Shown here one piece after another: positions 7,532 to 24,413 of a DNA stretch of 24,512 nucleotides. A model generated the notes under the pieces. It was not told the origin of the DNA and did not search any database. It saw only the letters and a list, made by a program, of their open reading frames with translations. Position 1 is the first letter of the stretch. Each line of letters opens with the position of its first letter. This DNA is from Polyangiaceae bacterium (GTDB lineage Bacteria; Myxococcota_A; Polyangia; Polyangiales; Polyangiaceae), in the NCBI GenBank assembly GCA_033763455.1, contig JANRKO010000042.1, positions 1 to 24,512 on the forward strand. The letters run 5' to 3'. The translations under genes and the position numbers were made by a program.

Positions 7532-7665
7532 GGCTCGTAAGCTCCTGGTGGATGTTTGACGGAAAGTGGGGCGGGGGCCCGCTGACAGAACGGCGCCCCT
7601 GAATACCGGACACGGACGTGCTCAGCAAACCATTCTCGCGGCTCCTGTGCTAAGCTTGGATTCCG

Positions 7666-8544
7666 ATGCCTTCATGGGAGTTCCACCATGCTAGCCTTGT
7701 GGGTTTTCCGCTAACGGCTTTCCCCGTTCGGCAGGAGCCCATAGAGCTCCACCAACACTGGGGATACGCCGAATTGGTGATCATCACCGGGGGTAAGGGC
7801 AAGCACCTCTTGGAGGGTGAGTGCTTCGAGGTGACGCGGGGTGATGTTTTTGTCATCCCCAAAAATCGTCTCCACGGCTACTCGGATTGCGAAGCCTTGG
7901 AGCTTATCAACGTGTTGTTTGATCCAGAGCGCCTGCTGCTTCCCGAACATCAGCTGCGGCAGATGCCAGGGTATCACGCGCTGTTTGCACTTGAGCCCGA
8001 GGTTCGGGCAAGGCACGATTTTGAGAGTCGCCTGCGTTTGGATGAAGCGCCGCTTAGGCGCGTGGAGCACGCCTCCACGGAGATACATTCCGAGGTGGTG
8101 GGGAAGAAGCCTGGGTTCGAAGTGGCGATTACCGGTCTGTTCTTTGGAATGCTAGTGGAGCTTTCTCGCGCCTACAGCCGCATGAGTTCACCTTCGTCGC
8201 AAGCGCTGCTTCGTCTTTCACGCTTGTTGGAATGGATAGATCGGCATTTCACCGAGCCCCTCACGGTGGTTGAGCTCGCGCGCCGTGCGCACATGTCGCA
8301 AAGTACGCTCGGGCGCTGTTTTCACGAGTGTTTTGGAGTGTCCCCGCTCAATTACGTGATTGATTTGCGGTTGAAGAAGGCCTCGCAAGTGCTCCGCGAT
8401 ACAGAGGTGCCCGTCAAAGAGGTCGCCTCAATGGTGGGTATTGATGATCCCAACTACTTTGCGCGCCTCTACAGGCGGCACACAGGGGTTGAGCCCAGCG
8501 CCTACCGCGCCCAGCACCGCCCGCCAAAGCAAGCGTCGCTCTAA
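7666..8544 (+). CDS. AraC-family regulator (RhaR/RhaS-like), paralog of 3920..4804
   Basis: Cupin H.H...ELVII..G.G.H...GDVFVI....HGY; PGY.ALF.LEP; HTH MSQSTL.R.F...FG.SP and DDPNYFAR. Confidence 0.92.
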   Translation: MPSWEFHHASLVGFPLTAFPVRQEPIELHQHWGYAELVIITGGKGKHLLEGECFEVTRGDVFVIPKNRLHGYSDCEALELINVLFDPERLLLPEHQLRQMPGYHALFALEPEVRARHDFESRLRLDEAPLRRVEHASTEIHSEVVGKKPGFEVAITGLFFGMLVELSRAYSRMSSPSSQALLRLSRLLEWIDRHFTEPLTVVELARRAHMSQSTLGRCFHECFGVSPLNYVIDLRLKKASQVLRDTEVPVKEVASMVGIDDPNYFARLYRRHTGVEPSAYRAQHRPPKQASL

Positions 8545-8565
8545 AGCTAGGTGGCGTCCACTCGC

Positions 8566-10239
8566 TTACGAGCTGCACGAAAGCATGGAGCAACCCGGCT
8601 GGTGCCGTGCCCATTCGGGCCGCTTGGCGGCGAGCCGAGTGCCTTCGTGTTCCGCGGCATAGGGTGTAGTGAGCGCGGAAGCGAGTGCATGAAGCTCGGT
8701 GAAATCACCCGTCTCCGCAGCTCGGATGGCCTCCTGTGCGAGGTAGTTGCGGGGGATAATGCTCGGGTTCACCGCGTTCATCGTGGCAATTTGTTCGGCA
8801 CGTGAGCTAGGTGCGTTTCGGCAGAGGTTTTCATAGCGTAGGAGCCAGTGGCTCAGCTTGCGGACGTACTCTGGCGGGAGAGCGTCTGGGGCGTAAAATG
8901 CCTTGAGGATGGGCCGCAATAGGCCTTCCGGCGATGCCGAATCGGAAGGGGAAGTGAGGGAGATTGTTCGGCCCGAAGCGGGAAGAACCGCTGCCAGTGA
9001 GCGGAAGAACAGCGTGTGGTCGGTTTCGACCTCCAGAAGTAGCTCTTGCAGCTCTACGAGGAGCTGCTCAAGCTCGGTGTCGTCGGCGTCCGAGTTGGCG
9101 AAAGCAAGCCCCAATTTCTTTGCCTGCATACTTGGATATTCGCGGTTGAACGTGTCAGCGTATGCAGAGACCGCGTGGTTTAGGTCTTCGCTGGGCAAGC
9201 CAAGCTTTTCGAGTGCATTGGCGAGCCGCACGAGGTTCCAAAGGGCCACGCGCGGCTGGTTCTCAAAGCGATATCTACGACCTTGAGAGTCGGTGGTGTT
9301 GGGCGTAAAAGCAGGATTGTACTCATCGAGCCAACCGTACGGCCCATAATCAATCGTGAGCCCGAGGATGGACATGTTGTCCGTATTCATCACGCCATGC
9401 ACGAAGCCCACGCGCATCCAATGTACGACAAGCCGAGCGGTGCGTTCTGCGATAGCCGTAAGCCAAGCGATGCAGGCTTCGGGCGTTGGCGGGCCGAGCT
9501 CGGGAAAATCACGCTGTATCGCGAAATCTACCCATTGCTTGAGGAGGGCCACATCGTTGCGGTGTGCGGGGAGCTCGAAATTTCCAAAACGCAGGAACGA
9601 AGGCGAAGTGCGGCAAACAATGGCGCCCGGCTCCACGCGCGGGTGGCCGTCGTAGAACATATCACGCTCAACACCTTCTCCGGTTAACACTAGAGAGAGG
9701 GCTCGCGTGGTCGGAATGCCGAGGTGGTGCATGGCCTCGCTGCACAAGAACTCGCGCAAGCTTGAACGTAACACAGCTCGGCCATCGCCCTTTCGAGAGT
9801 AAGGGGTTGGGCCCGCACCTTTTAATTGAAGCTCCCAGCGTTCACCGTCAGCGTTCACCACCTCCCCTAGGCTTATGGCTCGGCCATCTCCCAGTTGCCC
9901 TGCCCAACTGCCAAATTGGTGCCCGCCGTAGCAAGCTGCGTGCGGGGCCATCGGGGGCAAGGTTTCGTTTCCGGAGAAGACCTTTAGAAACTGCTCTGAG
10001 GCACACTCGGCAGGGCTCAAGCCGAGGCGCCGAGCCATGTCTTTGGAATAAGCTACGAGGCTTGGAGCGCGAACAGACGTGGGCTCCACGCGCGAATAAC
10101 ACGCCCCGTAAACGGCGCGGCGTGTGTTTTGGGGATTGGGATCAGCCGGAAGGCGATTTACAAGACAATTGTCAAAACGGAGCGCAAGAAGACTGCCGGG
10201 TGCAGCATCAGGGGCGGGGCCCGTAGATCTTGAGAGCAT
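8566..10239 (-). CDS. selO: Protein adenylyltransferase SelO (YdiU family)
   Basis: YGGHQFG..AGQLGDGRA, LQLKGAG.TPYSR..DGRAVLRSS.RE, HGVMNTDN, IDYGP, VNP..IPRNY, C-terminal LSCSS. Confidence 0.95.
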   Translation of the reverse strand: MLSRSTGPAPDAAPGSLLALRFDNCLVNRLPADPNPQNTRRAVYGACYSRVEPTSVRAPSLVAYSKDMARRLGLSPAECASEQFLKVFSGNETLPPMAPHAACYGGHQFGSWAGQLGDGRAISLGEVVNADGERWELQLKGAGPTPYSRKGDGRAVLRSSLREFLCSEAMHHLGIPTTRALSLVLTGEGVERDMFYDGHPRVEPGAIVCRTSPSFLRFGNFELPAHRNDVALLKQWVDFAIQRDFPELGPPTPEACIAWLTAIAERTARLVVHWMRVGFVHGVMNTDNMSILGLTIDYGPYGWLDEYNPAFTPNTTDSQGRRYRFENQPRVALWNLVRLANALEKLGLPSEDLNHAVSAYADTFNREYPSMQAKKLGLAFANSDADDTELEQLLVELQELLLEVETDHTLFFRSLAAVLPASGRTISLTSPSDSASPEGLLRPILKAFYAPDALPPEYVRKLSHWLLRYENLCRNAPSSRAEQIATMNAVNPSIIPRNYLAQEAIRAAETGDFTELHALASALTTPYAAEHEGTRLAAKRPEWARHQPGCSMLSCSS

Positions 10240-17568: not shown

Positions 17569-18510
17569 GTGGTGGGATACAGGAAAGCTAGCGGGGTGAT
17601 GGCGAGCCGTATCGCAGTTCGGGCACGAACCTTCATTTGCAGCTCGCAAGTTTCGTTGATCTCACTTTTATCTTGCTCAACTCCTGTGAACTCCGGAAGC
17701 GCGGGAGCAGTTGTGCCGCAGGTACCCGCTCAGCCAATGCCCAAGCAAGCGCCCCCTGCACAGACTCGCTCGGACGAGAAGGTGCCGACCCCTGCATCAA
17801 AGGCCGCGGACGAATGTGTTGGTTTTGACCTTGGTATTTGCGCTGATGGGTCGTGCGTTGATGGGATTCGCTACCGGCGGCAGGTGACGGTGCGTTTCCC
17901 CCCGCAGATTGAAGCCTCAGTTGCGCTAGTGCCTGGTTGCGTGATCGCATTGGCCTGGTTCAAGGACCCAGAACTGTGGGCAAGCTGCAAATATGTGACA
18001 GAGCCAAAGGACCGAGCCCTGCGGCTGACCCAGTGTGGGGGCGACATGCGGTTGGGCGAGGAAAACACGGTAACGTCAAGTACCTTCGGGATTGGCACAG
18101 ACAACTGTCCCGTGGACCTTGCGATTAAGGTGCCCCTGGTAGACGTCAACTGTGGCGGTAAGGCGCCGCCGAAAATGCACCATTTTAGGGAGTTCAAGAG
18201 GGCCCATACCTACGGGCTTTCTCCAAAGAGTCCTGGCGCTAATGGGCAACCGTTCTTGGTCCGCGCTCAGGTTCGGTTCTGGGAGGGGACGACTGAGGAT
18301 GAGTACGCAGAAGTGCTGCGCATGGCTGCGCGGGCGGGCGGAAGGCCATTCGAGGGCGCCAACTTAGGCGTGGGAGGGAATGACGTCCATTTCGAGTTTC
18401 CTCCCACAATCACAGACGAGGGCTACGATAGAATCTACAGAGCCTTGTGGGCGCACCCCGCCGTCAGCGGCGTTCTTGGGGATGTGAAATTCACGAGGTT
18501 GGGTTGGTAA
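17569..18510 (+). CDS. Cassette lipoprotein copy A: 8-Cys central domain plus C-terminal subtilase-prodomain-like domain; putative protease inhibitor
   Basis: LLSC lipobox; clear paralog of 19627..20555 and 20974..21903; GTG start and TAGGAA are conserved in all three. The function is inferred. Confidence 0.8.
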   Translation: MVGYRKASGVMASRIAVRARTFICSSQVSLISLLSCSTPVNSGSAGAVVPQVPAQPMPKQAPPAQTRSDEKVPTPASKAADECVGFDLGICADGSCVDGIRYRRQVTVRFPPQIEASVALVPGCVIALAWFKDPELWASCKYVTEPKDRALRLTQCGGDMRLGEENTVTSSTFGIGTDNCPVDLAIKVPLVDVNCGGKAPPKMHHFREFKRAHTYGLSPKSPGANGQPFLVRAQVRFWEGTTEDEYAEVLRMAARAGGRPFEGANLGVGGNDVHFEFPPTITDEGYDRIYRALWAHPAVSGVLGDVKFTRLGW

Positions 18511-18588: not shown

Positions 18589-19457
18589 ACTGGATAACCT
18601 TGAGCTGGAAGAACCCCGCAGGAAGTGGAGCGCAGTGCCGATACAAGGGAGGGAGTAGCCAGGCGCATCCGGTCGGCGCGACGCAAACAGCGCTTGCAAA
18701 GAAGTATGTGTTCGAGAGTTGCACCAATGGCGCGCATCCCGGAGCGGAAATCATTGCAGACTTCGTCAAGCTTCGTGTTGATAATGGCGATAGCTATCAG
18801 CCGCGCACGAGGGTGCGCGCAGTGCTCGGGGAGGTATCTCCCTGTGCTAACCGCGGCCCATCCAGACGCATCCCGGCCCTACCCTTTCCTCAGTATGCAG
18901 GCACCGACTTTGCTCCACATCCGACTCTGGGCTTGGAGATTGGCAAGCGGCATCTTCTGCTTTCGTTAAAGGAAGGCGCCAATGTCGACGACATTGGCGC
19001 TCTGGAAGCGCTATCAGGCGGGCACCTCGTCGGGGCGATTCCCGAAGTGGCGTTGGTGATTCTGGAGTTCCCTTGGAGCGAGGATTTCCCCGCGTTGGAA
19101 GCAGCTCACGCAGGATTGAGCTCACATCCGGCCGTGTCCGCAGTGAGCTACGATATGCTGCTCGCAGAAACGGTAGCTCCGCCTGCTCGAACTTACCCCT
19201 CGAACTCGCCTGGCCTGCCCTGGCGCTGGGGGCGAGCAGATCCGCCCGGAACTGTTGGCAACTGGGGCCTCCGCTACGTTCGTGCGCCCTTGGCATGGAA
19301 CGCTAACGCGGCGCTCAGGAAGCGGGGAGCTTCCGTTCCTGTGATAGTCGTCGATGCTGGCTTTCAACGCCATGAGGATCTCCAAGGCATTCTCACTCTG
19401 GCAAAGCAGGTTACCTTCGACTCTTCAGGGAATTTGGTCGAAAGCAACGGAGTGTAT
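18589..19457 (+). pseudogene. Internal fragment of the S8 protease gene (N-domain, prodomain, catalytic Asp only)
   Basis: Collinear with ~22240-23108. It has no signal peptide or ATG (in-frame TGA at 18564) and breaks after GVY, before the HGT motif. The frame continues to 19598 through the cassette upstream segment. Confidence 0.9.
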
Positions 19458-19626
19458 GGGCACTCGACACGCACTTACCTCACCGCGAACATTGGCACCG
19501 AGAGCCTGGGGAAAACCGGGAAAACCCTCGGGTTCGAAAGGCACGCTAGGGACGGGCGTGAAACGTTCGAGCGAAGTTGCGAAATGCCAGTTGTGTGAGG
19601 GCGAGTTTCGATGTTAGGAACCAGCC

Positions 19627-20555
19627 GTGGCGGGTAGTTGGACAGCGAGAGGGACGCGAGCAGGCCGTTTGGCTTTTCTGGCGCGAATCTGCATTTGCGG
19701 CATACCGGTTTCGTTGGCCTCACTTTCGTCTTGCTCCACGCCGTCGAGCTCTGGGAATGGAGGCCCGGTGGTGCCACAGGCAGCGGTGCGGCCAGCGCCC
19801 AAGAAATGGCCCGCTCGGCAGACGTACTCGAACGAGAAGGTCCCGACGCCGGCTTCAAAGAGCGCGGACGAATGTGTTGGTTTTACCTAGGTACTTGCGC
19901 GGACAAGTCGTGCAGCGATCTGCTCCAATACCGACGCGAGGTGACGGTGCGCTTCCCCAACGAGATCGAAGCCTCGGTTGCACCAACGCCAGGCTGCGTG
20001 CTCACATTACCCTGGTTCAAGGACCCAGGACTGCGGGCACACTGTAAGTATGTTGCGGACCCGAGGGATCGGGCCCTGCGGCTGGCTGAGTGTGAGGGCG
20101 ACATGCAGCTGGGTGAGGGAAACACGGTAACGTCGAGTGCCTTTGGGATTAGCCGGAACGGGTGCCCAGAGGACTTCGAACCTCAGATCCGCCTCGTGGA
20201 CGTTAACTGTGGCGCCAACGAGCCGCCACGGATGCACCATTTTACGGAGTTCAGAAGAGAGCCTAGCTACGGGTTTTCACCGCGCAATCCAGGGGCGTAT
20301 GGGGAACCCTTTCTGGTGCGCGCTGACATTTGGTTTTGGGAGGGAACAACGGAGAATGAGTACGCGGAAGTGCTGGCGATTGCTGCGCGCGCCGGGGGGA
20401 AACCCTTGAGCGGCGGACGGGACAATGTCGTCGGGTTCGAATTTCCCCCAACGACAACTAACGATAGCTATGAAGAAGTTTGCCGGGCTCTCCGGGCCCA
20501 TCCGGCGGTGATCGGGGGTGGTGGTGACGTGCCTCTGCAGAGGGACGGTTGGTGA
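19627..20555 (+). pseudogene. Cassette lipoprotein copy B, 1-nt frameshift at ~19884
   Basis: ORF 19627..19890 matches the N-terminus of copy C and ORF 19638..20555 matches the rest. GGTTTTACCTAG here versus GGTTTTGACCTTG in copy A. Confidence 0.88.
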
Positions 20556-20613: not shown

Positions 20614-20854
20614 ATGGAAAATCAAGATTCAATGAAACAACGGGCTCTCACGCTTGCTATGGTGCTTGCGATGGGGTGCGGCTTCGGCTGCTCTCAGGCG
20701 CCTGAAGAGATGCTCGCGAAGCAATCAGCCTCGCTTCAAACAGCGGCTCCCTTGTGCGCCCCCGTTGAGCTCGTTGCCGAGAAGAGTTATTCACCCAGCT
20801 CCTGGGCGGACGCAACCGCGTGGCTCGACACTCAGCGGGCGTTCTTGCTGCCAG
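20614..20854 (+). pseudogene. 5' fragment (80 codons) of the S8 protease gene
   Basis: Near-identical to 21963-22203 (MENQ.SMKQ...WLDTQRAFLLP), then joined to the cassette upstream segment; the frame stays open to TAG 20964. Confidence 0.9.
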
Positions 20855-20973
20855 GTTGCAACTGGGGAAAACCCTTGGTGGCCAAAGGCGCAGGCGCGAC
20901 AGGCTTGAGACGTTCGGACGACGTTGCGAAATGCCAGTTGTGTGAGGGCGAGTTTCGATGTTAGGAACCAGGC

Positions 20974-21903
20974 GTGGCGGGAAGTTGGACCGAGAGAGGG
21001 ACGCAAGTGGGCCGTTTGGCTTTTCTGGCGCGAATCTGCATTTGCGGCTTACCGGTTTCGTTGGTCTCACTTTCGTCGTGCTCCACGCCCTCGAGCTCCG
21101 GGAATGGGGGCCCGGTGGTGCCACAGGCGGCGGTGCGGCCAGCGCCCAAGAAATGGCCGGATCGTCAGAAGTACTCGAACGAAAAGGTGCCAACGCCTGC
21201 ATCAAAGGCCGCGGACGAATGTGTTGGGTTTGACCTTGGTATTTGCGCTGATAAGTCGTGTCTTGATGGGATCAGATACCGGCGCGATGTGACGGTGCGT
21301 TTTCCGAAGGAGATTGAAGCCTCAGTTGCGCTAGTGCCAGGTTGCGTGATCACATTGGCCTGGTTCAAGGACCCAGAACTGTGGGCAAGCTGCAAGTATC
21401 TGGGAGAGCCAAGGGGCCGGGCTCTGCGGCTCACGCAGTGTGAGGGAGACATGCAGCTGGGTGAGGGAAACACTGTCACGTCGAGTGCCTTTGGGATTGG
21501 CGCGGACAACTGCCCCGTGCACCTTGAGACCAAGGTGCCCGTCAAGGACGTTAACTGTGGCGCCAAGGAGCCGCCACGGATGCATTATTTTACGGAGTTC
21601 AAAAGAGAGCATAGCTACGGGTTGTCGCCAAGAAGTCCTGGGGCCCACGGCAGGCCATTTCTGGCGACCACATACGTGTGGTTCTGGGACGGGACAACAG
21701 AGGACGAGTATGCAGAGGTGATGGGTATTGCGTTTCGGGCAGGGGGACGACCCCTGCAGGGGTGGGGAGGCAATGCCGTGACCTTTGAACTTCCGCCAAA
21801 CATAACGGATGAAGGCTACGAAAGCGTCAACCGGGAGCTGGAGACCCATCCGGCGGTAAAGACTGCTGCTGGTGACTTGCCCCTCCAGCGGGACGGTTGG
21901 TGA
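20974..21903 (+). CDS. Cassette lipoprotein copy C (intact), directly upstream of the catalytically complete protease; putative cognate inhibitor
   Basis: LSSC lipobox, 8 conserved Cys, C-terminal V.FW.GTTE.EY...AGGRP...FELP...HPAV...D.PLQRDGW. Confidence 0.82.
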   Translation: MAGSWTERGTQVGRLAFLARICICGLPVSLVSLSSCSTPSSSGNGGPVVPQAAVRPAPKKWPDRQKYSNEKVPTPASKAADECVGFDLGICADKSCLDGIRYRRDVTVRFPKEIEASVALVPGCVITLAWFKDPELWASCKYLGEPRGRALRLTQCEGDMQLGEGNTVTSSAFGIGADNCPVHLETKVPVKDVNCGAKEPPRMHYFTEFKREHSYGLSPRSPGAHGRPFLATTYVWFWDGTTEDEYAEVMGIAFRAGGRPLQGWGGNAVTFELPPNITDEGYESVNRELETHPAVKTAAGDLPLQRDGW

Positions 21904-21962
21904 TGACAAAGACGTCGATGGGTACGAGCCCTGTAGCGCAGCTTTGAAAAAAGGGGAAAGTC

Positions 21963-24413
21963 ATGGAAAATCAAAATTCAATGAAACAACTGGCTCTCGC
22001 GATTGCTGTGGTGCTTGCGATGGGGTGCGGCTTCGGCTGCTCTCAGGCGCCTGAAGAGATGCTCGGGAAGCAATCAGCCTCGCTTCAAACAGCGGCTCCC
22101 TTATGCGCCCCCGTTGAGCTCGTTGCCGAGAAGAGTTATTCGCCGAGCTCCTGGGCGGATGCAACCGAGTGGCTCGACACTCAGCGGGCGTTCTTGCTGC
22201 CAGCGAGTGTTGATGTGATTGAGGGCTTATCTGGCAATCACTGGGTAACCTTTACCTGGAAGAATCCCGCAGGCAGCGGGGGGCAGTGCCGGTACAAGGG
22301 GGCGAGCAGTCAAGCCCATCCAGTCGGCCCTACGCAGACAGCGCTTGCGCAGAAGTATGTTTTCGATAGCTGCACCAGTGGGGCACGTCCAGGCACGGAG
22401 ATCGTTGCGGATTTTGTTAAGCTGCATGTCGACAACGGAGATAGCTATCAGCCGCGTACGGAAGTTCGAGCCCAGCTCGAGGAGGTGTCCCCGTGCGTTA
22501 GCCGAGGTGTATCTAGGCGTATCCCGGCGTTGCCCTTTCCGTCGTATGGAGCATCGGAATTCGCTCCGCATCCGACTTTCGGGTTGGAAATCGGCAAACG
22601 GCATCTGCTGCTTTCGTTGAAAGATGACGCCAACATGGATGACATTAGGGCCATTGAGGGGCTGTCGGGGGGGCGGATAGTAGGTGCGATCTCCGAGGTA
22701 GCGCTGGTGGTTCTGGAGTTCCCTTGGGAGGAAGATTTCGCTGCGTTAGCAGAGGCTCAGGCTGCGATCGGTTCGCATCCAGCAGTTTCGGCGGTCAGCT
22801 ACGATATGCTTCTTCAAGAATCTGCAGTTCCGCGCCCCCGAACGTATCCCGCGCCCTCACCGGGCCTACCCTGGACGTGGGGCGGAGCGGACCGGCCTGG
22901 AACCACAGGCAATTGGGGCCTTCGCTATATTCGCGCGCCCTTGGCGTGGAACGCGAACGCTGCACTCAGGAAGCGGGCAGCATCCGTTCCAGTAATCGTG
23001 GTGGATTCCGGCTTTCAGCGCCACGAGGATCTCCAAGGAATTCTCACCCTCGCAAAACAAGTGACGTTCGATCAAGGCGGTAACTTGGTGGTAAGTCCCG
23101 GAGTGTACCAGGATAATGATCCTGTCGTTGCCGAGACCAGCCACGGGACGGCGACCGCCGGGATCATTGGGGCCAGATGGGGGAACGGGCGCTACATCGA
23201 TGGCGTGACGCCGTTCGCTACGATCACGGGGGCGGGCGTGATTTCTCAGCTGAAGCCGGTGCAACTCGCAGGAATGGTGGACACGATGGTTCGCGCCGCG
23301 CTGGACCCGCAATCGTCGAGTCGCGTGGTGAACATATCGCTCAGCCTCAATCTTGGTAAGCAATGCTTTGACTCCACGGGGGCGTTGACACGACCAGGCA
23401 ACATAGCAGGACAGTATCGCTGCGATCCGGGCTTGATCACCGAAACCGACGGCCCGCATCCGAGCAGCACCTGCGACGCGGCGGCTTTGCGTGCCAGCAT
23501 TGAAAAGGCTGGCAAAGCTTTTGCCGACGCGGTTGCCGCCCTTCAAACCTTCAACAAGAAACCTCGCCCGGTCCTCTTCGTCGTCGGCGCCGGCAACGAT
23601 TCCGGACCCGAAGAGCTTCAAGGCTGCATCGCCGGAACCCCCCGAGGAGGCTTGGGTGATTTCCCCGCACATTGGTCAAGTCCAATGGCCTACGCAGCGA
23701 TAAAGATACCTGCAGTGGCGCCTCACATGATCGTGGCCGAGTCCATTGGCCCCAAGAATGAACCCGGTATCAGCGTGCCCGTGCTCCGGCGTTCCAGCTT
23801 CAGCAATTTGGTCACTGTGCCTGGTCGCGGCCTGTTCGCTCCCGGAGAGAAGATCCAATCTTTGGCAGGGGGTGGCTCGCTTTCCACCGTGCAGGACGAA
23901 TCCGGTACCTCCTTTTCCGCACCAATGGTTGTCGGCGCGGCAGCCTTCATCGCTGCTGCTAAGCCCGAATTGACGAATCAGCAGGTTCGAAAAATCCTGG
24001 TCGACGAAGGCGCACCGTTTCCGAAACTTGTGGTGTCTTCGCAGACGGATCGAGCTCTCGATCTAGCGCGTTCACTGCGCGCAGTGGACAAGGTTGCTGG
24101 GGGAAACACGATTGGCCGCATGCTCGCGGACATGAACGATGCTACGCGAGATGGCTTTACGCGCGTTGCCTACGGCCCCGCTTTTTCCCACGTCACCGCT
24201 ACTGGCACCAAAGCAGATGTGGCGTCGTTCACCGAGGAATCAGATGGCATCGTCGATATGCGGGATTTTCGGCGTCTTCGCGATCTCTTGCTCGCGTCGA
24301 ATGGACGAACCATCATTCAGGACGTTACCAACCCTTCGACCAATCCGGCACTCGACCTCAATGGCGATGGTCTAATTAGTTCTCATCCAGAAACGGCAAG
24401 AGCTCGAAAATAA
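21963..24413 (+). CDS. S8 (subtilase) serine protease, predicted lipoprotein; possibly 3'-truncated
   Basis: GFGC lipobox; triad D348 (VIVVDSG), H394 (SHGTATAG), S650 (SGTSFSAP); oxyanion N545 (GAGND); VVNISL; prodomain at ~22602-22820; DGIVDMRD and DLNGDG Ca-binding-like motifs near the end. Confidence 0.93.
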   Translation: MENQNSMKQLALAIAVVLAMGCGFGCSQAPEEMLGKQSASLQTAAPLCAPVELVAEKSYSPSSWADATEWLDTQRAFLLPASVDVIEGLSGNHWVTFTWKNPAGSGGQCRYKGASSQAHPVGPTQTALAQKYVFDSCTSGARPGTEIVADFVKLHVDNGDSYQPRTEVRAQLEEVSPCVSRGVSRRIPALPFPSYGASEFAPHPTFGLEIGKRHLLLSLKDDANMDDIRAIEGLSGGRIVGAISEVALVVLEFPWEEDFAALAEAQAAIGSHPAVSAVSYDMLLQESAVPRPRTYPAPSPGLPWTWGGADRPGTTGNWGLRYIRAPLAWNANAALRKRAASVPVIVVDSGFQRHEDLQGILTLAKQVTFDQGGNLVVSPGVYQDNDPVVAETSHGTATAGIIGARWGNGRYIDGVTPFATITGAGVISQLKPVQLAGMVDTMVRAALDPQSSSRVVNISLSLNLGKQCFDSTGALTRPGNIAGQYRCDPGLITETDGPHPSSTCDAAALRASIEKAGKAFADAVAALQTFNKKPRPVLFVVGAGNDSGPEELQGCIAGTPRGGLGDFPAHWSSPMAYAAIKIPAVAPHMIVAESIGPKNEPGISVPVLRRSSFSNLVTVPGRGLFAPGEKIQSLAGGGSLSTVQDESGTSFSAPMVVGAAAFIAAAKPELTNQQVRKILVDEGAPFPKLVVSSQTDRALDLARSLRAVDKVAGGNTIGRMLADMNDATRDGFTRVAYGPAFSHVTATGTKADVASFTEESDGIVDMRDFRRLRDLLLASNGRTIIQDVTNPSTNPALDLNGDGLISSHPETARARK

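Follow-up and report, generated by a model that had tools for sequence, protein, structure and literature searches.

A subtilase prodomain-like domain at the C-terminus of tandemly repeated lipoproteins encoded beside an S8 protease in a Polyangiaceae bacterium

We analysed a 24,512-nt stretch of DNA (hereafter the window; contig JANRKO010000042.1, positions 1 to 24,512) from the Polyangiaceae bacterium assembly GCA_033763455.1. The 3' third of the window carries, on the + strand, a cassette of one lipoprotein gene and one protease gene that is tandemly repeated three times. Cassette 1 pairs lipoprotein A (17569-18510) with a downstream truncated paralogue of the protease (18600-19598), and cassette 2 pairs lipoprotein B (19638-20555) with a short downstream remnant (20614-20856). 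In cassette 3, lipoprotein C (20974-21903) precedes the sole full-length protease (21963-24413), a subtilase of peptidase family S8. The open reading frames (ORFs) and translations of the lipoproteins and the protease match the description in a first-pass annotation of the same DNA, which had also proposed that the C-terminal domain of the lipoproteins is a free-standing copy of the protease's own propeptide. The interval concerned, 21655-22820, begins at residue 228 of lipoprotein C and extends to approximately residue 286 of the protease, and a gap of 59 nt separates the lipoprotein C stop codon (21901-21903) from the protease ATG (21963) on the same strand.

Lipoproteins A and C are built to one plan: a lipobox, a low-complexity linker, a Cys-rich N-terminal domain (N-domain) of ~150 aa and a C-terminal domain (C-domain) of 82-86 aa, the last making up the C-terminal third of a mature lipoprotein of ~270 aa. 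The lipoboxes, identified by eye, read L-L-S-C in copy A and L-S-S-C in copy C, where the Cys is residue 36. Copy A (68% identical to copy C) is a GTG-initiated ORF with a likelier start at a Met 10 codons in, and the start codon of copy C is uncertain. In copy C the linker, probably disordered, extends to residue ~77, followed by the N-domain at ~78-227, to which no fold was assigned. Lipoprotein C has no Pfam match, and a language-model atlas search with the N-domain gave no usable match. Copy B is broken (19627-20555, + strand): the frame encoding its signal peptide and linker (19627-19899) closes at a TAG and the remainder lies in the frame 19638-20555, the gene being either a pseudogene or the product of an assembly error.

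The full-length protease (816 aa) begins with a signal peptide that may include a lipobox, and its Peptidase_S8 domain (PF00082, E 2.4e-22) spans residues 344-681 (22992-24005), with D348, H394, N545 and S650 supplying the catalytic triad and the oxyanion Asn. Its own prodomain occupies residues 203-290 (22569-22832) and scores 71.9 bits with an independent family hidden Markov model (HMM).

The C-domains lie at 18250-18507 in copy A (86 aa), 20307-20552 in copy B (82 aa) and 21655-21900 in copy C (residues 228-309), all on the + strand. Three motifs that the first-pass annotation had aligned by eye with the protease propeptide, GG[RK], FE[FL]P and HPAV....D, recur in each of the window copies (A, B and C) and in a homologue from outside the window (P0007). 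The spacing from EFP to HPAV is 17 residues in the protease and in lipoprotein A alike, and the order and spacing of the motifs in the last ~82 aa of A, B and C are the same as in protease residues 203-290, a likeness that exceeds chance in the profile comparisons described below. The placement of this domain at a free C-terminus was likewise borne out. Beyond the conserved Asp of the last strand there is a tail of constant length, exactly 8 residues in four of four sequences, ending in R-x-G-W with the R, G and W invariant (...LPLQRDGW in copy C). In the profile alignment Q305 of copy C stands opposite Q285 of the protease, and the lipoprotein C-terminus falls at protease V289, one residue short of the near-invariant Pro290 of the family. 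As the domain forms the end of a separate ORF, rather than lying N-terminal to an S8 domain in one polypeptide, it is propeptide-like and not a propeptide.

Profile-profile comparison with hhalign carries the case for homology. A four-sequence C-domain profile matched the two window prodomains with a probability of 79.5% over 39 columns, and a five-sequence profile, to which three distant proteases had been added (30-34% identical to the window protease), with 93.8% (score 41.0, 68 columns). For this comparison, column shuffles (n = 100) scored a mean of 10.2 (standard deviation 2.1, maximum 16.6) and the reversed profile 7.3. With the distant proteases only, the probability was 75.3% (score 30.7, 67 columns). 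A phmmer search with protease residues 195-700 returned 2965 proteins at E <= 0.001, and 146 prodomain carriers were found among 170 relatives of the protease, the window's own fragment being taken out of the resulting profile. Against these 146 non-window prodomain segments the C-domain profile reached 94.9% (E 4.8e-8, score 40.5, 70 columns), with column shuffles (n = 60) at a mean of 9.1 (standard deviation 1.8, maximum 14.4). In the opposite direction, a C-domain HMM scored 22.6 bits on the prodomain of a protease relative, P0034. Searching the six-frame translation of the whole genome (57,626 frames of >= 60 aa) with the independent prodomain HMM (146 segments) placed lipoproteins C and B at ranks 3 and 4 (E 0.075 and 0.09, respectively), behind only the protease and its fragment. 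It is the profile-profile comparison together with genomic position, and no single pairwise score, that confirms the resemblance and places it beyond chance. On these sequence comparisons we consider the C-terminal domain very probably homologous to the prodomain of the protease clade.

A link to a named family was found at one remove. Four of 34 protease relatives reached PF22148 (Fervidolysin_NPro-like) at E <= 0.01, and one of these four, P0172, exceeded the family cut-off of 21 bits (26.1 bits), hence the connection of the C-terminal domain to PF22148 is transitive, via the relatives of the protease. In the language-model atlas a PF22148-bearing cluster set was among the nearest (score 0.90), which we treat as a lead only. 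A Pfam hit of the copy A C-domain to the GDSL-lipase family (E 0.035) lay far under the cut-off and was rejected.

Predicted structures were compared alongside the sequences. An AlphaFold2 model of protease residues 195-700, based on a 46-sequence alignment, had a predicted local distance difference test score (pLDDT) of 87.4 and a predicted template modelling score of 0.92. Its prodomain (pLDDT 89-97) is predicted as β 209-219, α 225-235, β 238-243, β 248-252, α 259-270 and β 275-286 (in model numbering β15-25, α31-41, β44-49, β54-58, α65-76 and β81-92). The pro-forms 3whi_A, 2e1p, 1r6v, 8pol_A and 4tr2_B (unprocessed) align to model residues 6/18-506 and mature-only chains to residues 109-506. 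By this comparison protease residues ~206-290, which precede the region covered by the mature-only chains, are modelled as a subtilase prodomain in the canonical docked position. The copy C domain is predicted by AlphaFold2 with the same β-α-β-β-α-β order (pLDDT 62-83), with elements at β 231-237, α 243-255, β 259-261, β 268-273, α 279-291 and β 295-300 (E159-165, H171-183, E187-189, E196-201, H207-219 and E223-228 in model numbering). A Foldseek search of the Protein Data Bank (PDB) with this domain gave no match at E <= 0.001, pro-subtilisin E being ranked third (E 0.011), and VIA-align returned generic ferredoxin-like matches, among which ACT, NikR and S6 domains outscored I9 inhibitors. 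With such generic matches, the structure is compatible with a prodomain fold and not diagnostic of it; a predicted β-α-β-β-α-β fold is necessary, but not sufficient, for membership of the prodomain family. The earlier suggestion of an I9-type subtilase-prodomain fold thus holds for the order of the elements, but not for its specificity, the fold search being unspecific and Inhibitor_I9 having no Pfam match at E <= 10.

The claim that the domain was copied from the protease's own prodomain stood in part, and not in the sense of any recent copying. At the profile level the C-domains are kin of the clade's prodomains, but the closest prodomains are not those of the neighbour itself: by C-domain HMM the ranking was led by P0034 (22.6 bits), then P0046, P0037 and P0011, with the protease's own prodomain 15th of 148 (13.3 bits) and that of the truncated fragment 21st. 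In a quick IQ-TREE phylogeny (151 rows, 94 columns), which was poorly resolved, the four C-domains formed one clade (Shimodaira-Hasegawa-like approximate likelihood ratio test (SH-aLRT) 100), nested with prodomains P0037, P0011 and P0055 of the closest protease subfamily (SH-aLRT 97), and so grouped elsewhere than with the own prodomain. The wider group of 34 rows that encloses this clade, itself unsupported, also contains the own prodomain. From the HMM ranking and the tree, the C-domain looks like neither a convergence nor a fresh duplicate, but an old capture of a prodomain from the protease lineage that has since diverged.

Divergence among the copies was also measured as non-synonymous (dN) and synonymous (dS) substitution. 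For the lipoprotein C-domain, dN/dS values of 0.15-0.28 (dS >= 1) indicate purifying selection. When copy A is compared with copy C, the C-domain has a dN of 0.31 vs 0.12 for the N-domain, and a saturated dS vs 0.55. This gap in synonymous divergence (C-domain 21655-21900/18250-18507) suggests a mosaic origin, or else that the N-terminal part has undergone gene conversion. The truncated protease of cassette 1, which corresponds to protease residues 92-412, lacks a signal peptide and retains an intact prodomain (frame residues 107-194; 75.5 bits with the prodomain HMM); relative to the full protease its dS is 1.3-1.8 and its dN/dS 0.07-0.13, indicating that this paralogue was functional during most of its existence. 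The protease remnant of cassette 2, which matches protease residues 1-81 at 90% identity and is divergent beyond, is recent (dS 0.09).

We lean, if only slightly, towards a lipoprotein that inhibits the neighbouring protease, or helps to retain it, through a tethered propeptide-like domain, a reading that is wholly inferred. Each cassette would encode a lipid-anchored exported protein whose last ~82 residues are a putative diverged homologue of the prodomain of this S8 clade. Once the protease had cleaved away its own anchor, N-domain and prodomain, the lipoprotein C-terminal domain would bind the same surface of the mature catalytic domain, with the conserved 8-residue tail (...R-x-G-W-COOH) in or beside the substrate cleft. 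The active enzyme may thereby be inhibited, kept at the membrane, or both. This proposal draws on the profile homology, the same element order, the docked prodomain modelled in the protease, the 59-nt adjacency, the tail of constant length, purifying selection and the comparable layouts at two other loci (L084 and L102, described below), and on analogy with eukaryotic propeptide-like inhibitors and with the potempin lipoproteins of Tannerella, which have other folds.

A number of results weigh against it. BLASTP of copy C against the protease was not significant, the top high-scoring segment pair being in the claimed register with 23% identity over 100 columns (E 3.5), and with copy A the HPAV stretch alone was matched (E 1.5). 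The independent prodomain HMM gave low scores on the four lipoproteins (15.1, 14.8, 9.9 and 9.3 bits, of which 14.8 is copy B and 9.3 copy A); in the genome scan an unrelated frame on contig C6 was a near tie (E 0.1, 14.6 bits) and lipoprotein A was not retrieved at E <= 10. In Pfam neither PF05922 (Inhibitor_I9) nor PF22148 was matched in the three C-domains at E <= 10, nor in the protease's own prodomain segment. A PDB sequence search with the C-domain profile returned six rows (best E 0.14), none of them a protease prodomain. The AlphaFold2 model of the lipoprotein was built from 4 sequences only, with a mean pLDDT of 41 and the N-domain below 50. The family is rare: a word-indexed search found one lipoprotein homologue outside the window (P0007), none of 60 relatives, three of the same genus included, carries the lipoprotein family, and the C-domain profile gave 3 weak matches (E ~0.008) in 400 genomes of the phylum. 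Furthermore, copy B is frameshifted and two of the three protease copies are truncated, so the locus may be decaying. Nor is there an obvious need for a further prodomain, given that the protease has retained an intact one.

Some of these results are what would be expected if there were no functional link at all, the C-domain being a generic ferredoxin-like module whose resemblance to a prodomain is convergent or fortuitous and the lipoprotein having an unrelated role. The predominance of ACT, NikR and S6 domains among the fold matches, the low HMMER scores with a similar score for the unrelated C6 frame, and the lack of a Pfam match all point this way. However, the profile-profile score stands at least 15 standard deviations above column shuffles, across the whole domain and with profiles free of window sequences; the prodomains matched best belong to the subfamily of the neighbour itself; and within the genome the resemblance is confined to genes immediately adjacent to the sole protease that has this prodomain. 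We regard the absence of a link as very unlikely.

The last point on the list, the intact prodomain of the protease, bears on a further alternative, namely that the tethered domain is a trans-acting foldase, an intermolecular chaperone for the catalytic domain after export. Subtilase prodomains are established intramolecular chaperones (restated in PMC6993865), and the position of the lipoprotein gene, immediately before that of the protease and on the same strand, is also in keeping with such a role. The protease nevertheless has a complete prodomain of its own, scoring 71.9 bits and modelled as docked, hence a chaperone in trans is not needed, and its prodomain and the lipoprotein domain are strongly diverged; of the four explanations we consider this one the least probable.

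The evidence of homology and adjacency applies equally to a docking or retention module that is not an inhibitor. Here the domain would recruit the protease, either to retain the released catalytic domain at the cell surface or to offer it the tail or the Cys-rich N-domain for processing; in the latter version the lipoprotein would serve as substrate or as the precursor of a signal. In the profile alignment the tail runs ~2 residues beyond the end of prodomain strand β4 (modelled to residue 286) and could span the scissile position. An anti-sigma factor with a C-terminal PF22148 domain encoded upstream of an S8 gene at another locus (L102, described below) suggests a protease-recognition handle in signalling, and in Myxococcus xanthus a PopD-PopC complex controls the secretion of a subtilase (PMC6434023). 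On the other side, the N-domain has no known fold or relatives and nothing marks it as a signal, and the characterised propeptide-like proteins are inhibitors (PMC6993865). On balance we think docking without inhibition fairly unlikely, and retain the tethered inhibitor or retention partner as the favoured interpretation.

Stand-alone propeptide-like inhibitors are known, and those named in PMC6993865 are all eukaryotic: POIA1 of Pleurotus, PBI2 of yeast, SPI-1 of Arabidopsis, TgMIC5 of Toxoplasma and SUB1-ProM of Plasmodium, the last being encoded inside the Plasmodium SUB gene array. Those proteins are small and have a single domain, whereas the domain described here is the C-terminal part of a ~270-aa anchored bacterial lipoprotein whose Cys-rich N-domain is unrelated, and inhibition is proven for them and proposed in our case. 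The same paper describes the stand-alone inhibitors as lacking significant sequence similarity to propeptides, in contrast to the profile-level homology with the neighbour's prodomain subfamily that is detectable here. Compared with the prodomains of PF22148 and PF05922, the lipoprotein domain has the same predicted topology and profile-level homology, but is neither N-terminal nor cleaved from a zymogen.

Among bacteria, the nearest parallel in gene arrangement is with the potempins PotA-E of Tannerella forsythia, outer-membrane lipoproteins whose genes lie directly upstream of those of their cognate peptidases, and of which PotC inhibits the S8 peptidase mirolase via a β-barrel scaffold (PMC9890683). 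A lipoprotein signal and a gene directly upstream of a peptidase gene are both present in the window, and the likeness extends to an outer-membrane-type lipoprotein linked to a secreted peptidase in several paralogous pairs. Potempins are described as proteins of 98-132 residues with a β-barrel (OB fold or eight-stranded) and loops that enter the cleft, and not as prodomain-like; the domain in our lipoproteins is predicted by AlphaFold2 to be α/β rather than a potempin-type β-barrel and is, at the profile level, prodomain-related. PopD of Myxococcus xanthus, which joins the subtilase PopC in a complex that governs the secretion of the enzyme (PMC6434023), offers an analogy of a partner protein that restrains a subtilase until it is needed, a role that for the window lipoprotein is a proposal. 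According to PMC6434023, PopC lacks a signal peptide, unlike the window protease, and PopD acts on secretion. No characterised bacterial prodomain-like subtilase inhibitor was found in the full texts searched, most subscription journals being outside that scope. What is new in the present locus is a module of this kind fused to a larger orphan Cys-rich lipoprotein, in triplicated, co-diverging and partly decayed cassettes.

Other parts of the two proteins were also compared. A weak collinear likeness was observed between the lipoprotein N-domain (21205-21654) and the protease N-terminal region (22095-22568), with stretches of the form W....C.Y.G and V.D.N.G. If true, this likeness would make the lipoprotein a copy of the whole pre-catalytic region of the protease, which is at present unsupported, hhalign of the two N-domains giving a probability of 0.8% and a score of 16.7 vs shuffles at 11.3 +/- 1.8 (maximum 16.2). 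The protease N-terminal domain (residues ~48-172; 22104-22478, + strand) has no Pfam family and is a module shared with other proteins, occurring in a trypsin-like protein of 1162 aa (P0010, residues 813-931) and, sometimes in two copies, in same-genome frames of more than 1200 aa (C50:91224-94883 and C92:61327-65097). A weak dockerin-like calcium-binding repeat lies at protease residues 760-807 (24240-24383, + strand; 17.1 bits, under the Pfam cut-off of 22.9). The neighbouring genes in the window are unremarkable and include DUF4388, a MopE-type motif, DUF1552, an ammonium transporter and SelO. Among the sequencing datasets listed as containing this DNA, four are of DNA (shares of 0.05-0.37) and none is of RNA.

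Comparable arrangements were sought in other genomes. The prodomain HMM matched 44 of the 7,727 frames in 78 loci that surround related proteases (E <= 0.1), and nearly all of these 44 also carry an S8 match. The exception, in a metagenome-assembled genome of Desulfohalobiaceae (L084:9893-10336, - strand), encodes 147 aa with a signal-peptide-like N-terminus and a stand-alone PF22148 domain (27.7 bits), and is convergent to an S8/TIG protease (7581-9815, + strand) with a PF22148 prodomain of its own (47.5 bits). In 300 genomes of the phylum PF22148 gave 72 matches, 7 of them in frames of < 400 aa, and all 7 loci were inspected. At L102 (G151:C9, 2812-5633) an apparent operon encodes an extracytoplasmic function (ECF) sigma factor, an anti-sigma factor and an S8 protease, and the anti-sigma factor, directly upstream of the S8 gene, combines zf-HC2, one predicted transmembrane segment and a C-terminal PF22148 domain (31.6 bits). 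A putative prodomain mimic on this anti-sigma factor suggests signalling that is gated or sensed by the protease. The remaining short PF22148 frames look like split or frameshifted protease genes.

At three loci, L103 (G209:C63, 5239-7586), L104 (G080:C3, 4616-7151) and L101 (G279:C1, 5333-6454), the frame has 319-375 aa and the prodomain match breaks off close to its end, at position 65 of the HMM. The S8 domain goes on in an overlapping frame in L103 and L104, which come from two genomes of one genus, and L101 has no S8 match at E <= 0.01. At L105 (G282:C240, 489-5399) the prodomain frame abuts the S8 frame. The arrangements at these four loci could be frameshifts, split genes or assembly errors. 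Separately, a 346-aa frame at L021 (G278:C179, 2002-3039, - strand) has an N-terminal hydrophobic segment, a TIG domain and, in its last ~80 residues, weak matches at 16.1 bits to the HMM of the lipoprotein C-domain and at 11.8 bits to the independent prodomain HMM; its 12.2-kb contig carries no S8 gene.

The orphan Cys-rich lipoprotein of the window, the ECF anti-sigma factor of L102 and small secreted proteins such as that of L084 are examples of what may be a more general pattern, in which the prodomains of subtilases have been taken up by bacteria more than once to serve as C-terminal handles for protease docking on various kinds of membrane-tethered protein. We put this forward tentatively, and as a generalisation it is at present doubtful. 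If true, the cognate S8 protease would be held, silenced or sensed at the envelope, and L102 would represent protease-gated transcription through a prodomain mimic.

For the lipoprotein cassettes themselves, if the C-terminal domain does bind its neighbour, the reuse of a prodomain as a trans-acting regulator would extend to bacteria, and a prodomain could be grafted onto larger anchored proteins. Regulator and protease pairs would also duplicate and diverge jointly, the two old cassettes having a dS > 1 and being under purifying selection. A C-terminal prodomain-like domain encoded beside an S8 gene would then be a signature by which cognate protease regulators may be found in genomes.

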